A stretch of 64,000 nucleotides of DNA from Neodothiora populina. Its lineage: Eukaryota. Location of the stretch: the NCBI RefSeq assembly GCF_041146345.1, contig NW_027191404.1:2108001-2172000 (forward strand), read 5' to 3'. The translations under genes and the position numbers were made by a program. Numbering within the stretch: position 1 is the stretch's first letter; each line of letters begins with the position of its first letter. The notes below the pieces were generated by a model that was given only the letters and a program-made list of their open reading frames with translations, was not told where the DNA came from and made no database searches. Shown in pieces: positions 8,220-21,922 of the stretch.

Positions 8220-11200
8220 ATGCTGGCAATCAGAAGATTACCTGTCTCGATTCATACCATACAACACAGGCTCAGATGTGGTAGCAGTCAGAAGTCGGCT
8301 CTACGCTCTCTCACATGCTCAACATTTCACTGCATGCCTTCTGTTGTTCGCTCGCGTACCAGCCTTTCGCCAGAGCGTGAGCTGCATAAGAAACCCAGAT
8401 TCGGCTCATATACCCCCATATGCACACGCTACGCTGCCATGTCGACACAGGATCTTGGTAAGCCGAGTGCTCTCGAACTCACCCATGTGGAGGAGACACT
8501 TCGCAGATTGCTTCTAGACGTCGCAGAGTATATTGATCATCTTCCGCCTACGGATGTGGCCGATGGCCAAGTGACCCTTCCTGACGATCTGGCTAAGCAG
8601 AAGATTGTACTTCGCTTCACAGGTGGATGGGTCCGGGATAAACTGCTCGGTGTGGAGAGTCATGACATCGATGTGGCCATTAACAAGATGACCGGCTTCC
8701 AATTTGGTCTGAAACTCAAGGAGTACCTGGAGATCCCTGGCAACCCGGAGAAGTATGGTCTCGAAGGTGTGGCGAAGAATGATTCACAGTCCAGCAAGGC
8801 TGGTACTACCGGCAAGAACAAAGTCGTAGGCGGTCTTCACAAGATCGAGGCCAATCCTGAGAAGTCTAAGCATTTGGAGACGGTCACTACTAAAATTCTC
8901 GGGCTCGACATCGATTTGGTTAACTTGCGCAAGGAAACTTACTCGGAAGACAGCAGAAATCCGCAGATGGAGTTTGGTACCCCTCAAGAGGATGCACTCC
9001 GCCGGGACGCCACTGTCAACGCCATGTTTTACAACCTGAATACTCAAGTCATCGAGGATTTCACTGGTCAAGGTCATGATGATATGAAGGCAAAGCTCAT
9101 CCGCACTCCGCTCGAGCCCTATCAGACATTCAAGGACGACCCCCTCCGTGTGCTGCGCTTGATTAGATTCGCGAGTAGGCTGGGATATGCCATTGATTCA
9201 GCAGCCGAGGAGTCGATGAAGAACTCCGACATCCAAGACGCACTTCAAGCCAAGATCAGCCGCGAACGTGTAGGCGTCGAGCTGGAGAAGATGCTGCGAG
9301 GGCCTGATCCTTACAGAGCACTTGCCCTTATCGATCGTCTCTCGCTCTATCTGACCATCTTCTCCGACCCTACACAGCCTGCTAACAAAGTCTATCGACC
9401 GGATCTTGACACCTGGACTGCAGTATACGACTTTGTCAAGACGCTGCCCAGCCGGAGCAAGGAGACGCAGAGTAAGCGCGATGCGTATTCGATGGCGGTC
9501 GTGGAGCTAATCAAAAATTCCCAGGTCTGCTTGTTCGTGATGCCGAAGAACAATACGTCGCTTGGCTCCTTACAGCTATGGTACCATACCGCGACGCTCC
9601 CCAGCCTCAAGCCGAGCCTGGAAAGAAGCTGCCTCCACCAGTGGCCGCCAATATTGCGCGGGAAGGGTTCAAAGCCACCAACAAGATCATTGATATTGTC
9701 GTTGCTTCCATCCGTAACCACAGCGAGATTGCAGGGTTTGCGTATGGTATTGGTGAGCGAAGTGGCCGCGCGAACCAAAAGATCGAAGGTGAAGATCATA
9801 TGGCGCGTGACGTTCTGGGCATGGCTATACGTCGGTGGGGTCCTACCTGGAGGTCGCAAGCCATGTTCGCACTACTCGTCAAAGTCGCCGATGAGCCGCA
9901 ATCCGCTAAAGGTGAGTTGACAACCGTTTCCATCATTGTACAGGAAACTTATCAGATATAGCGCACCTTGCTGTCTACGAGACATTCCTCAAACACGTAC
10001 AGGATCTTGGAATCATGGATGCATACGCGACCAAACCGCTACTCGACGGAAAGATGTTAGCTAAAGCACTTTCGACCAAACCCGGTCCTTGGATGAAGGA
10101 CGCCCTCGACGTGGTCATGGCATGGCAGTTGCGTAACCCTGACGGCGCTACAGTCGAAGGAGCGATTGAGGAAGTGAAAAACACAAAGCTTCATGGTGAG
10201 CTCACAGCAAGCCTCGTCACACATTTTCTCAGGCTTACCATTCGCCCTCTGTTTTCAAAGAGTCAGCATCCAGCGGTAACAGCGCAAGGTCGTAAGGTCA
10301 CCACCACCGTGCTTCCCAAGAAGATGTCTATGGAGCAGCCAGATGCCGTCGCAAGGCCTTGGAAAGCCAAAGATGCGCCTGCACTCGATCTACTACCTTG
10401 GATTCTAGAAAGCATCGATGACAGCATGATTGAACAAAACTGGCCTCTTATATTACCTCCGCTATTAAGTATCATTGACGATACAGAGACCATATTTAAA
10501 GCCCAGGGTTGTCACCTGATCAAGCTTCTCCTCAGCCGAACGCCATCGTCATTGGTCAAGCGGACTGGGTTAAACGAGGTTTTCCAAGTGGCACTGATGC
10601 CATGTCTTGGTTACCTGCCTCCCCTGACACCAGAAGACGAGTCTATCGCTCTAATCACCGAGGCCTACCCTGCCCTGATTGCACTGTCGCGGACTTTGGA
10701 CGGTCACGGTCAACAACGAACTCAATCACCAAGCTCCACAGCACCTCGAGTCACACTTCTAGATACTATGATACGGAAAGGCATACTCAACGCATACACA
10801 TATTGTAGTGAAAATGTCAAGATAGTCGAGGCCGTGCTGGATAACATGCCGTCAGTGCTGCAAGAACTCGGCATCGAGAGCGTCAAACACCTCAAGCACA
10901 TCCTTCCCATGTTGTCGGAAGTGCTGAGCGACCCATTCGGCCAGGCGCATCCACCGACCCTACTGGCAGCTACCAAGGCGTTACAAAGTGTGATATTGAA
11001 CGGGTGGCCACGCATGGCATACAATCGAGGGGAAGTTCTCAAGGGTATAACCCTTTGCTGGATTAATCTAGATAAGGAAGAGTCGTCGGATGCGTTGGAT
11101 GCGGTACGGCAAGAGTGCAAGATAACGATTTCGATGCTCAAGGACGCCGTTTCTTCTTCTGAGGATTGTGACATCCAGGCTGATTTCGAGGCGCTTGTCG

Positions 11201-11235
11201 GAGCAGATCCAAGATTTGATGAGCTTCTTCGCTAG
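8220..11235 (+). CDS. CCA1: tRNA nucleotidyltransferase (CCA-adding enzyme) fused in frame to a C-terminal Tti2-like domain
   Basis: Exons 8220-9471, 9525-9911, 9962-11235. Class II motifs GGWVRDKLLG, DIDVA, EDALRRDATVNA, DDPLRVLRLIRFA, KISRERVGVE; CCA tail KPLLDGK..KPGPWMKDALDVVMAWQLRNP. About 345 aa follow without a stop, resembling fungal Tti2 (IRPLFSK..TAQGRK, PWK, WPLILPPLLSIIDD, RTGL..VF..ALMPCL.YLP). Confidence 0.88.
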
Positions 11236-11599: not shown

Positions 11600-12532
11600 T
11601 CACTCGGTCATCACAGCGTCCGCCGCCCCTGCGGTAGAAGACAGACCGAATTTGGCCTCGGCGCCCTCTTTGACAGCATCGGCAAGTACAGTCCTACTCA
11701 AGACCGCAGCTTCAACAGCACGGTCAATAAGACTTTCGGCATCGGCTCCTGCATCTCCTTTCATCCAAAGCTCCGTGACTTCGTCTCTTGATTGCAAATA
11801 GCCCACCACGCAAGCGGCGCGCAGATTGTCGTGCTCATCAGGGCAAGGATCGAGAACCGAGATGTCTTTCTCTGCCGTCTCGTCGTCTGCGAACGTACTG
11901 GCAGCCACACCTCCAGAGACCAGATCCACGCAATCGATGCCCGCATCCACTATTGCCGCGCTTGCAGCAGTGATGCATCCGGCCAGCACGTTCATCATCC
12001 CGACGCCGCCCAGGCTCTGTTTCCTCTCTCCCGCAGTGGGAGCGTTCTCCTCGCCTTCGAGGACCGTAATGACCACTTCGCACGCGCTCTTGGGGAACCG
12101 CTCGCCGATTATGATGCCTCTCAACGCCGTCTCCAGATGTACGCCCAGGTCCCGCTCGGCAGAGTCGCGCAGGTAGCCTCTTCGCTGTTTGCTAGCGAAA
12201 GGCGCAAACTTGACGTGTGTGCTGAGTAGTAAATTGGGACTGAAAGGTGCGGTTCGAGGCAATGGTCGCGGACCGTGGACCGTACATGTCAATTTCAACG
12301 AGCTCGTCCGCGAGGAGAAAGTCGTCATGTTGTCTTGGGGTATTGATGGCTGTAACTCCAAGTATGAGGAACCTGAGGCGGATGGTACCAGGCCGGTGCG
12401 CAGGAAGATCTTGCGAAGATCATTTGGGCCACGAGAGCGAGAGGATTTTGTCTCTATTGCTGTCGGTGTTGATGTGAAGACTGGTGCTGTTGTGCCACCT
12501 GGCGGTGCATTCGTGCGACGGCGGTCTGTCAT
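11600..12532 (-). CDS. MTR3: Exosome RNase PH-like subunit, Mtr3-like
   Basis: Intronless 310-aa ORF; MTDRRRTNAP..IFLRTGLVPSASGSSYLE..CTVHGPRP..HVKFAPFA..RFPKS..ITAASAAIVDAGIDCVD, an RNase PH fold. Confidence 0.85.
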   Translation of the reverse strand: MTDRRRTNAPPGGTTAPVFTSTPTAIETKSSRSRGPNDLRKIFLRTGLVPSASGSSYLELQPSIPQDNMTTFSSRTSSLKLTCTVHGPRPLPRTAPFSPNLLLSTHVKFAPFASKQRRGYLRDSAERDLGVHLETALRGIIIGERFPKSACEVVITVLEGEENAPTAGERKQSLGGVGMMNVLAGCITAASAAIVDAGIDCVDLVSGGVAASTFADDETAEKDISVLDPCPDEHDNLRAACVVGYLQSRDEVTELWMKGDAGADAESLIDRAVEAAVLSRTVLADAVKEGAEAKFGLSSTAGAADAVMTE

Positions 12533-12982
12533 GGCTATGGTGTGAATCGGAATAAATGTTTACATTCATCTCAAGTCCAGCTTGTAATAATCGACAATAA
12601 ATCTACTACAAATGTTCCTTCCCAAATAATGGAGTGAGGTCATGTTTGCACTGGGCCTGTGCTTTGACAATCTTGGCGCCATTGATTTTAATTTTGAATC
12701 TTTCGTCCTTCCTGCTCTTTAAAAGCTTGCAACCTACTACCACTCCTGTTCAACTACAACTTCGGGTCCTCTCAACCTTGGTTCTCTGTGGTCGAGCTCG
12801 AGATGTATATATGAAAGGCATATCACTCGACTGGGAGACCACGGCTGGGTGGCTGGTGTTGCAGTTGGGAGATGTGGCATTGGAGGTTTCTAGCAATTGA
12901 TTTGCGACTCATTTACTGGTGTAGGCTTTGCCTGTGACCGTGTCCTTCTGGTACGTTACTATCTCAACATCCGCATCGCATC

Positions 12983-20168: not shown

Positions 20169-21922
20169 ATGGATTCCGCTCCGAATACTCCTACTGCTGC
20201 CGCCGCTACTGTCGCCGTCCCTTCCCCATCATATTCCCCCACATCCGGCCCTTCGCCCGCGCTGAATGGCAGTGATGGCGCCAACGGACGCTCCAACATC
20301 ACCACCCAGAACATCCCTTCGCAGACCTCGCTGGCCTTTGTCGAGCCCCACCGGCCATCTCTGACCAGTGAGAAGGGCTCCGACGAGAATGTCAACCGCG
20401 CACGCAAGGGCTCCGGCTCCGTGCAGTTCCTGCCTCATCTGCGTGGGCCGGCCGCCGCCCACAGTAGGAGCCGTAGTCGAAATGTCGGTAGAGACGGCAG
20501 TCGCAGACGCATGAGCAGTCCTCCTCCACCCGAGTATGTTTCATCTCCACTCTTGCAATGTCCTCCAGCATCCGCTTACAACGAACCTCTCATGCAGGCA
20601 ATTCAAGCATCGCGTGTCGTTTGATACTTTCGACAACAGAGATGCGTCAGACTTCTCGCTCACATTGAACCGCAAGCACAGAGACTACGAGTATACCAAG
20701 AGATCGCGCACTTTCCTCTGTGGTACCGATGCGAACGACTACTCGGACACCGCCCTCGAATGGCTGATCGATGAATTGGTCGATGACGGCGACGAGGTCG
20801 TGTGCTTACGTGTGGTGGAAAAGGACAGCAAAGAAGCACTCAAGTGGGCTGGTGGAGGTTCTGGTGGCAGAGAAGGCAGGGAGCGAGCCTACCGAGCCGA
20901 GGCGAACAAGATGATCACAAGGATCCAAGAGAAAAACGTCGAAGACAGAGCTATCAATCTGGTGCTCGAGTTCTCTATAGGAAAAGTCCCCGACACTATT
21001 CAGCACATGGTATGTCTCTTGGTCTTCTTTACAGCATCACTTGCTAACATGGCTTCAGATCCGACTCTACGAACCCGCGATCCTAGTGGTCGGCACTCGG
21101 GGCCGATCTCTGGGAGGTTTCACAGGCTTGTTGCCTGGCTCCGTGTCCAAGTATTGTCTCCAACACTCACCTGTGCCCGTGATTGTCGTTCGGCCCTCTG
21201 CTAAGAGAGAGAGCAAGAAGAAGAAGAGACTGCTTGACCCGAGCAGACGAGCCTACCGGGATATCCTCGATAAGAGCGACGATCTCCGTGCGGGTGATGG
21301 TGGCCACATCCTTGACCACAGCAACAGACTTAGCACCATACCTGGCGATGGCTTGGGCACTTTGGCCGAACTCAAGCAGATAGAAGCTGAGGAGGAAGCT
21401 CGAAAGGTCGCCGAAGCCGTGGGCTACAGGCAGTCGACAACGTCCGAGGGAGTGCCGCTCTCGAGAGTGACGTCGGCCAAATCTGACTTCACTGGCCGAA
21501 GCAGCAGTTTTGGAAGTTATCGTAGTGACAGCCCCGAGGCACTGCGTAGCCCGAGGAGCCACCTGATGAAGAGTCCTGAGCTGCGCGGCCTAGACTCGCC
21601 CGCCCTGAGTGATTCGGATGATTCCAGCGACTCTGCAGACGAGAGTGCGGTCTCGGCACATGTCGCAGCCCAGGAGAAGTCATTGCGAGAGGCTCGAGAG
21701 AGAGCGCTCAAGGCTGAAGAGGAAGAGAGGGAGAGAGAACGGGAGGCAAAAGAAAGCAAGGAGAACAAGAGGAGATCCCAAGCTCCAAACGGTGGCGGAG
21801 GTGCAGGCGCATTGGCTCTACTCGATGCTCTGGGTGGTCCTGACGACACAAACAAGAAGGTGAACAGACGGACCACTGACAGCAAGGGCAGAAAGCTAGC
21901 TGGGGGGTATCCGATTCCTTAA
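20169..21922 (+). CDS. Universal stress protein (USP) domain protein
   Basis: Exons 20169-20533, 20598-21009, 21059-21922; RTFLCGTDANDYSDTALEWL..DEVVCLRVV..LVVGTRGRSLGGF.GLLPGSVSKYCLQHSPVPVIVVRP. Confidence 0.9.

Follow-up and report, generated by a model that had tools for sequence, protein, structure and literature searches.

A probable exitron-like alternative intron at the CCA1-Tti2 fusion joint of Neodothiora populina and related Dothideomycetes

Can one fungal gene deliver a tRNA CCA-adding enzyme either on its own or fused with Tti2, which belongs to the co-chaperone complex serving TOR/ATM/ATR-type kinases, depending on whether 65 nucleotides (nt) at the joint are removed from its RNA? 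The question is raised by a CCA1-Tti2 fusion gene on the plus strand (8220-11235) of a 64,000-nt stretch of Neodothiora populina DNA (assembly GCF_041146345.1, contig NW_027191404.1, positions 2,108,001 to 2,172,000), hereafter the window, in which a first-pass annotation had proposed a splice switch. Judged from sequence comparison, the segment at 10196-10260 (+) is a real exitron-like alternative intron, the evidence being direct in relatives and by homology in N. populina. We consider it highly probable that it is a spliceosomal intron derived from ancestral Tti2 coding sequence, placed at a fusion joint conserved across the Dothideomycetes, whose retention would give the fusion and whose removal would give CCA1 alone.

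The candidate intron in the window

Every element that the first-pass annotation had placed at the joint could be read directly in the window. The donor, G10195|GTGAGC at 10196-10201 and followed by T10202, makes up a 5' splice site GTGAGCT (10196-10202, +) spread over the Gly-Glu-Leu codons GGT GAG CTC, and it lies, as had been claimed, where the homology to CCA1 ends; the stand-alone CCA1 genes of three loci in our comparison (L076, L078 and L079) stop 10-12 codons past an AIEEV-type motif. A GCTTAC at 10233-10238, followed by a pyrimidine-rich run at about 10240-10256, belongs to the presumed branch site GCTTACC (10233-10239, +; Leu-Thr codons CTT ACC), in which 10237 would be the branch A, 23 nt before the acceptor; the branch consensus is CTRAC, from which CTTAC deviates. 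The same GCTTAC is indeed found again at 20574-20579, within a GTATGT...CAG stretch of about 63 nt (20534-20596) that the first-pass annotation took for an intron of a neighbouring gene. Two acceptors are present, AAG at 10258-10260 (+), which is the Lys codon 22 counted from the donor codon, and CAG at 10264-10266 (+), a second possible site that is a candidate in this organism; they define introns of 65 and 71 nt, lengths that each leave a remainder of 2 when divided by 3.

The retained 65 nt read as the second and third base of the Gly codon followed by ELTASLVTHFLRLTIRPLFSK. When the 65 nt are taken out the frame becomes KLH-ESASSGNSARS, when 71 nt are taken out it becomes KLH-ASSGNSARS, and both end, as had been predicted, at the TAA at 10293-10295 (+), which in the Tti2 frame is spread over the Arg-Lys codons CGT AAG. 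The length of 65 nt is comparable to that of the two predicted constitutive introns of the same gene (53 and 50 nt), and the segment has the GTRAG-type donor and the AG 3' end of a U2-type GT-AG intron. It lies inside a protein-coding exon with an open frame (9916-11235) and is conserved at the protein level, two features of exitrons. Taken from the window alone this set of motifs might be chance; the comparative data given below show otherwise. A search for sequencing runs listed none of RNA and one that is probably of DNA (X1, share 0.06); from the latter only one contig, of 239 nt, could be placed, at 10424-10662 and free of joints, which is uninformative on splicing.

Codon choice, spliced forms and the open frame in relatives

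For a comparative test of splicing, we aligned twelve junction segments and used the alignment to scan a collection of metagenome contigs, which gave 80 loci. An unspliced junction block was recognised by motif in 68 of them, which together with the window were clustered (<93% identity) into 41 clusters for the codon counts. Outside these counts stood L059 and L066, which were missed by the motif pattern yet have both AGTGAGCT and, at 65 nt, a CAG; L072, with several frameshifts and 64 nt; L074 and L080, cut by the contig end; L076 to L079, which are stand-alone CCA1 genes; and L040, L073 and L075, which are spliced forms. In L072 (819-1464) the donor, CTTAC and AAG are all present, with several frame changes and 64 rather than 65 nt, and this locus could be either a contig with many errors or a copy in decay.

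A donor that is not conserved in relatives, together with an absence of spliced reads, had been set beforehand as what would refute the proposal, and GTGAGCT proved invariant in all 41 clusters. At codon 1 (10195), Gly was encoded by GGT in 28 of 28 clusters (background 25%) and Ser by AGT in 13 of 13 (background 15%), codon 2 (10198, Glu) was GAG in 41 of 41 (background 56%), and codon 3 (10201, Leu) was CTN in 41 of 41, with neither TTR nor CTG. Towards the 3' end of the segment, codon 14 (10234, Leu) was CTT in 40 of 41 clusters (background 18%), codon 15 (10237, Thr) was ACC in 36 of 41 (background 31%), and codon 22 (10258) was AAG in 24 of 27 clusters with Lys (background 58%) and CAG in 13 of 13 with Gln (background 54%), so that 37 of the 41 clusters have AAG or CAG there. 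The codon alignment of the last exon contains 143 columns in which one residue is kept in at least 60% of the clusters, and the top-codon share ranked 1 to 5 among them at 10195 (GGT, 1.00), 10198 (GAG, 1.00), 10234 (CTT, 0.98), 10258 (AAG, 0.89) and 10237 (ACC, 0.88), the next-best column reaching 0.81. Because the median share is only 0.47, synonymous sites are largely randomised in this set. Synonymous variation is also free within the same 22 codons (for example at Leu 10201, Leu 10228, Pro 10246 and Phe 10252), and this free variation at neighbouring sites argues against mere recent ancestry. The pattern of codon use shows the putative splice signals to be kept by selection at synonymous sites.

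The four clusters devoid of AG at codon 22 have a CAG either 3 nt earlier (L022, 62 nt) or 6 nt later (L035, L069 and L070, 71 nt), the +6 CAG being the sole AG in L035/L039 and in L069/L070. All predicted introns are therefore 62, 65 or 71 nt long, each 2 mod 3. Of the two acceptors proposed earlier, relatives support the AAG at 10260 (65 nt), and the +6 CAG position appears to be used in lineages lacking AG at codon 22 (protein P0250 compared with L035).

As to the strength of these signals, GTGAGT, CTAAC and CTGAC are the stronger consensus forms. A TTR codon for Leu 3 would yield a GTGAGT donor and occurs in 0 of 41 clusters, and CTA or CTG for Leu 14 would yield CTAAC or CTGAC, one of which occurs in only 1 of 41. 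The signals look kept at sub-optimal strength.

No support was obtained for a conserved RNA structure over the intron (RNAalifold, 40 sequences, -1.77 kcal/mol); single folds gave a mean z of -0.19, and the window a z of -1.07, against mononucleotide shuffles. GGTGAG (10195-10200) is complementary to CTTACC (10234-10239) over six pairs, one of them G-U, and CTTACC is the core of the 5' end of U1 small nuclear RNA. Masking of the donor by a helix with CTTACC found no support as a general mechanism: only 7 of 40 sequences gave the pairing a probability higher than 0.5, and the window gave 0.16. Both sides of the helix are invariant, which leaves no covariation to score.

Spliced forms were found in three lineages as contigs (L040, L073 and L075) that lack precisely the homologous 65 nt. 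L075 aligns with L064 over 3005 nt with 1 mismatch and has neither the 65-nt GTGAGC..CGCAG nor, some 243 nt upstream of it, a GT..AG intron of 50 nt; L073 aligns with L043 over 2625 nt with 18 mismatches and is devoid of the 65-nt GTGAGC..CCGCAG and of a GT..AG intron of 47 nt. The third, L040, is Aureobasidium-like, with 85% identity to L009/L010 upstream, and lacks 65 nt (GTGAGC..GTAAAG) relative to L010; the missing segment aligns base for base to window 10196-10260, and the CCA1 frame of L040 stops at the same TAA, within GGTCGTAAGG. All three contigs join exactly after codon 22. Because GT-AG segments are missing from them, we take these contigs for spliced RNA, and they show an apparent spliced RNA form in at least three related lineages.

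The predicted frame-shifted tails were also found in at least 10 database proteins that contain CCA1 domains only (for example P0163, P0219, P0223 and P0250). P0163 (Cladosporium halotolerans, 631 amino acids [aa]) ends in ..KKHGQTG, as predicted for L012, L015, L021, L023 and L024; the tails of P0215, P0217 and P0223 (..GQTDK) are of the L041 type, and that of P0219 (..MKNEI) is as in L061/L075. P0250 ends in ..KTTSSKSHSGGS / ..KKNKTTSSKSHSGGS, close to the 71-nt prediction for L035, and the tail of P0206 corresponds, by derivation by hand, to a Macrophomina-type Tti2 sequence shifted by one base. Further proteins end 1-4 residues past the donor position, namely P0205 (Ascochyta lentis), P0209 (Coniothyrium glycines), P0189 (a Verruconis gallopava "variant"), P0195, P0216 and P0225. 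Member sequences number 45 for P0250, 18 for P0206 and 5 each for P0219 and P0223. With the short V. gallopava variant as query, no 100%-identical long form was found among the 120 matches listed.

The stop that follows the splice comes early, at a median of 4 codons and within 14 codons in 37 of 40 cases. When the same shifted frame was read from 10,500 control positions, the median was 21 codons and 38% stopped within 14. The spliced product would end at about the place where stand-alone CCA1 ends in L076, L078 and L079.

Two models of one gene of Dothideomycetes sp. NU459 (P0004 and P0072) differ at this site. P0004 lacks about 18 residues within the same 22-codon stretch, and P0072 joins straight after H-G to an in-frame site about 106 residues downstream; these models show that annotators placed introns at this spot.

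Turning to the retained form, the claim that retention leaves an open CCA1-Tti2 frame held in 68 of 68 orthologous loci: in 54 of them the frame runs on from the donor codon into Tti2 for 831-1146 nt before a stop is reached, and in the other 14 it is open to the contig end. Since the Pfam match of Tti2 starts at L-H-G-E, profile position 33 and 1-2 codons ahead of the donor, the 22 intron codons belong to the conserved Tti2 domain (profile positions about 35-56). Seven of the 22 residues are invariant in the 41 clusters, and the third positions of four of these vary freely; in an alignment of 121 proteins the length of the linker between the two parts varies by whole codons only. These observations show that the predicted retained reading is under selection at the protein level. 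No conserved start codon precedes the Tti2 region once the intron is spliced (the ATG at 10324 of the window is not conserved), so Tti2 would be translatable only from unspliced RNA. Of the two mature forms expected of an exitron, the spliced one is thus seen in relatives and the retained one is argued from selection on the encoded protein.

Weighing the explanations

In the reading that we favour, the 65 nt, when retained, would encode the most N-terminal conserved helix-forming segment of the Tti2 domain, so that the product would be a CCA-adding enzyme fused to Tti2, 970 aa long from ATG 8220 or 897 aa from ATG 8439. On splicing of the 65 nt, the frame would move by two bases and the CCA1 frame would end 11 codons on, at the TAA at 10293-10295, leaving a CCA-adding enzyme of ordinary length (635 aa from ATG 8220 or 562 aa from ATG 8439) and turning the Tti2 region into 3' untranslated region. 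The same splicing probably takes place in N. populina, because all signals are intact there. Both proteins would be made and used, and the invariant non-consensus signals (GTGAGC, not GTGAGT; CTTAC, not CTAAC or CTGAC) may keep splicing partial and in this way set the ratio of the products. The splice switch of the first-pass annotation is thus supported on three sides, by the conservation of the donor, by the spliced relatives and by the open retained frame.

The idea that GT, CTTAC and AG occur merely by accident, through the Gly-Glu, Leu-Thr and Lys codons of an ordinary constitutive exon, is hardly credible. The signals do all lie in codons of conserved residues, from which some conservation would follow through the protein alone, and the spliced RNA does not come from this organism; however, the conservation is at synonymous positions, which take ranks 1 to 5 of 143 columns, three contigs lack exactly 65 nt with GT-AG ends, and many database proteins end in the shifted frame. 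Codon fixation, spliced contigs and protein ends together contradict it, and we rejected it. The conservation of the splice signals would be expected equally if splicing were unproductive, that is, if the intron were real and its removal served mainly to lower the level of the fusion through a premature stop and a long 3' untranslated region leading to nonsense-mediated decay, the short CCA1 being a by-product. In keeping with this, the whole Tti2 region stays behind the stop in the spliced forms of L040 and L075, leaving about 1.0-1.1 kb untranslated. We nevertheless judge such an account unlikely, given that the stop arrives far sooner than by chance (median 4 versus 21 codons), that the spliced protein ends where the stand-alone CCA1 of unfused lineages ends, and that spliced contigs are abundant enough to have been assembled repeatedly (45 members for P0250, 18 for P0206), partial decay being compatible with all of this.

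A further possibility is that of nested genes, in which the full-length transcript is always spliced to give CCA1, and Tti2 is made from a shorter, unspliced transcript starting at a conserved in-frame Met in the C-terminal region of CCA1 (e.g. PWMKDALDVVMAWQL), the fusion protein being rare or absent. In-frame Met codons are indeed present ahead of the joint, no RNA was seen that connects the CCA1 5' end with the retained 65 nt, and the Tti2 of L076 is a separate gene just downstream of CCA1, from which it follows that a promoter once lay in this area. What makes this arrangement quite improbable in our view is the linker, which varies from 0 to 40 residues and is never frame-broken in the 68 loci, a constraint that a separate gene needs only if it starts upstream of the linker. 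Moreover, the Tti2 module of the Dothideomycetes lacks the N-terminal region of about 100-190 residues that precedes LRALFSKS in P0113 and HVRPLFAKS in L076, and this absence from the fusion suggests that CCA1 sequence has replaced it.

Several points weigh against the alternative intron that we favour over these readings. The 41 clusters are related, so that the codon counts are non-independent events. The contig collection is not labelled as RNA or DNA, and the RNA origin of L040, L073 and L075 was deduced. The spliced RNA comes from relatives, splicing in N. populina being suggested by homology. A mature mRNA that keeps the 65 nt and is devoid of the upstream intron was not seen among the 80 loci, and for this reason the fusion protein is argued from sequence conservation and open frames. 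Lastly, the spliced mRNA, with its 3' untranslated region of about 1 kb, might be degraded rather than translated. As candidates for a retained-intron mRNA we had considered L005, L010, L012, L019 and L056, which have long intron-free upstream frames; they are genomic, their contigs measuring 11-160 kb.

Beyond the alternative intron itself, we put forward very tentatively, as something possible rather than probable, that the only Tti2 of the Dothideomycetes is the one fused to CCA1, and that the exitron acts as a tuned, possibly nutrient- or stress-responsive valve, with an invariant, deliberately weak donor and a weak branch site, setting or regulating how much of the CCA enzyme goes into the Tel2-Tti1-Tti2 co-chaperone. 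If this were true, a single splice decision would couple tRNA supply to the biogenesis of growth kinases (TOR and other PIKK).

The fusion gene, its origin and known systems

The model of the CCA1-Tti2 gene (8220-11235, +) was built from open reading frames, sequence, Pfam profiles and the architecture shared with other fungi. Exon 1 (8220-9471, +), with a second in-frame ATG at 8439, is followed by a predicted constitutive intron 1 (9472-9524, +; 53 nt, GTAAGC...CAG), a GT-AG interval that restores the frame between the open reading frames starting at 8220 and 9476 and across which orthologous proteins are continuous. Exon 2 (9525-9911, +), drawn from frames and sequence, leads to a predicted constitutive intron 2 (9912-9961, +; 50 nt, GTGAGT...TAG), where the frame changes; its homologue, a GT-AG intron of 47-50 nt placed about 243 nt ahead of the donor, is missing from the spliced contigs L073 and L075, and a frame break 234-324 nt upstream of the donor in most genomic loci fits its place. 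Exon 3 (9962-11235, +) belongs to a frame that, when unspliced, is open from 9916 to the TAG at 11233-11235.

Exon 1 matches the PolyA_pol head domain (PF01743, 3.5e-23) and an RNA-binding domain (PF12627, 6.8e-06), both above the curated cut-offs, as for a CCA-adding enzyme of the class II nucleotidyltransferases, and we regard the product as a predicted enzyme of this kind. The Tti2 family domain PF10521 covers 10189-10944 (+), corresponding to residues 76-327 of P0001, the exon-3 translation, with an E-value of 8.8e-77 and 258.8 bits against a cut-off of 25.2, over profile positions 33-278 of 279 (246/279); this places the C-terminal part in the Tti2 family, with a putative role in the Tel2-Tti1-Tti2 complex. 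Among the best 120 of 158 matches, the longer relatives of the exon-3 protein comprise at least 120 proteins of about 780-1040 aa with both PF01743 and PF10521, and orthologues are annotated as single fusion proteins. The named holders of the fusion among the matches listed are nearly all Dothideomycetes (Aureobasidium, Cercospora, Zymoseptoria, Cladosporium, Alternaria, Venturia and Phyllosticta), with a few from Xylona, lichen-forming or other ascomycetes; the best identities listed are 57-59%, so a close named relative of this organism is absent from the list. In the 121-protein alignment a linker of 0-40 residues separates the CCA1 end (ALDVVMAWQLRNP..AIEEVK) from a conserved G/S-E-L-x4-L-x2-HF-L-x-LTIRPLF-x-K/Q block.

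Between the first ATG at 8220 and the second at 8439 lies an N-terminal extension (8220-8438, +) of 73 residues that is basic and Ser/Arg-rich, with acidic residues absent up to about residue 52, and several orthologues have similar N-termini. The extension resembles a mitochondrial presequence, and yeast CCA1 uses alternative starts; from this parallel and from the composition, a targeting role may be presumed. With two starts and a splice switch, four products could arise from the gene. A minus-strand open frame of 319 codons (11600-12559) runs towards the CCA1-Tti2 gene from its 3' side; by eye, its product looks like an exosome subunit of the RNase PH type.

As to the origin of the fusion, in L076 (1-4200), to which L077 is nearly identical, CCA1 stops after ..NEVVNRKHELDIR, and a few hundred bases further along the same strand comes a separate Tti2 gene of several exons, with a longer N-terminal region before ..HHVRPLFAKSKNPAITSQGRK; in the Thozetella model P0113, LRALFSKS stands about 190 residues past the CCA1 end. 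This arrangement suggests that the fusion arose from conserved neighbouring genes. Most simply, the neighbours would have become fused through a deletion that took out the stop of CCA1, the N-terminus of Tti2 and the spacer between them, and existing Tti2 coding sequence would then have gained splice sites, a process that may correspond to the intronization described for YSH1/SYC1 and NUP116/NUP100 (PMC7491326).

Well-documented cases of functionally conserved alternative splicing are few in fungi, where it is rare, and the present gene would add a class-wide example whose signals are kept by codon choice. One splice decision would here determine whether an essential tRNA CCA-adding enzyme stands alone or is joined to Tti2. 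The same decision would explain an inconsistency of annotation, in that the same Dothideomycete locus is listed either as a CCA1 of about 550-630 aa or as a protein of about 900 aa. Our literature search, which left supplements aside, found no paper describing this splice switch or linking Tti2 with tRNA nucleotidyltransferase or CCA1; Tti2 and CCA-adding co-occurred only in an unrelated mouse study.

Compared with the stand-alone CCA1 and Tti2 of other fungi, the gene has the same domains, and its spliced product ends as stand-alone CCA1 does; unlike them, it carries both in one fused frame, with a Tti2 part devoid of the N-terminal region of L076 and P0113. In Saccharomyces cerevisiae, the retained intron of PTC7 is reportedly translatable and yields two isoforms, the intron being in frame and adding an internal segment, whereas the intron described here shifts the frame and would decide on the attachment of about 345 residues of a second protein. 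Exitrons, defined in Arabidopsis and human, are alternatively spliced introns inside protein-coding exons and of ancestral coding origin, about half of those described having lengths that are not multiples of 3 (PMC4484396). The published definition fits our segment, which lies within a coding exon, is stop-free if retained and is not a multiple of 3; it differs from the exitrons described there in being fungal, apparently class-wide and located at a gene-fusion joint, and in that splicing would drop a whole second protein rather than trim a domain. It differs also in that only the spliced form was seen in mature RNA, and in relatives only. A further parallel lies in the yeast genes YSH1/SYC1 and NUP116/NUP100, in which conserved coding sequence was intronized and point changes made splice sites within an exon (PMC7491326). 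There as here, conserved amino acids lie inside the alternative intron and one gene makes two proteins that are separate elsewhere; those genes belong to the Saccharomycotina, in contrast to the Pezizomycotina and the other genes considered here. In the yeasts the spliced gene gave way to duplicates, whereas in our case the two-gene state (L076) looks ancestral and the spliced gene derived. What sets the CCA1-Tti2 gene apart from the known conserved fungal cases is the joint of two unrelated functions and the clarity of the codon-level signature.

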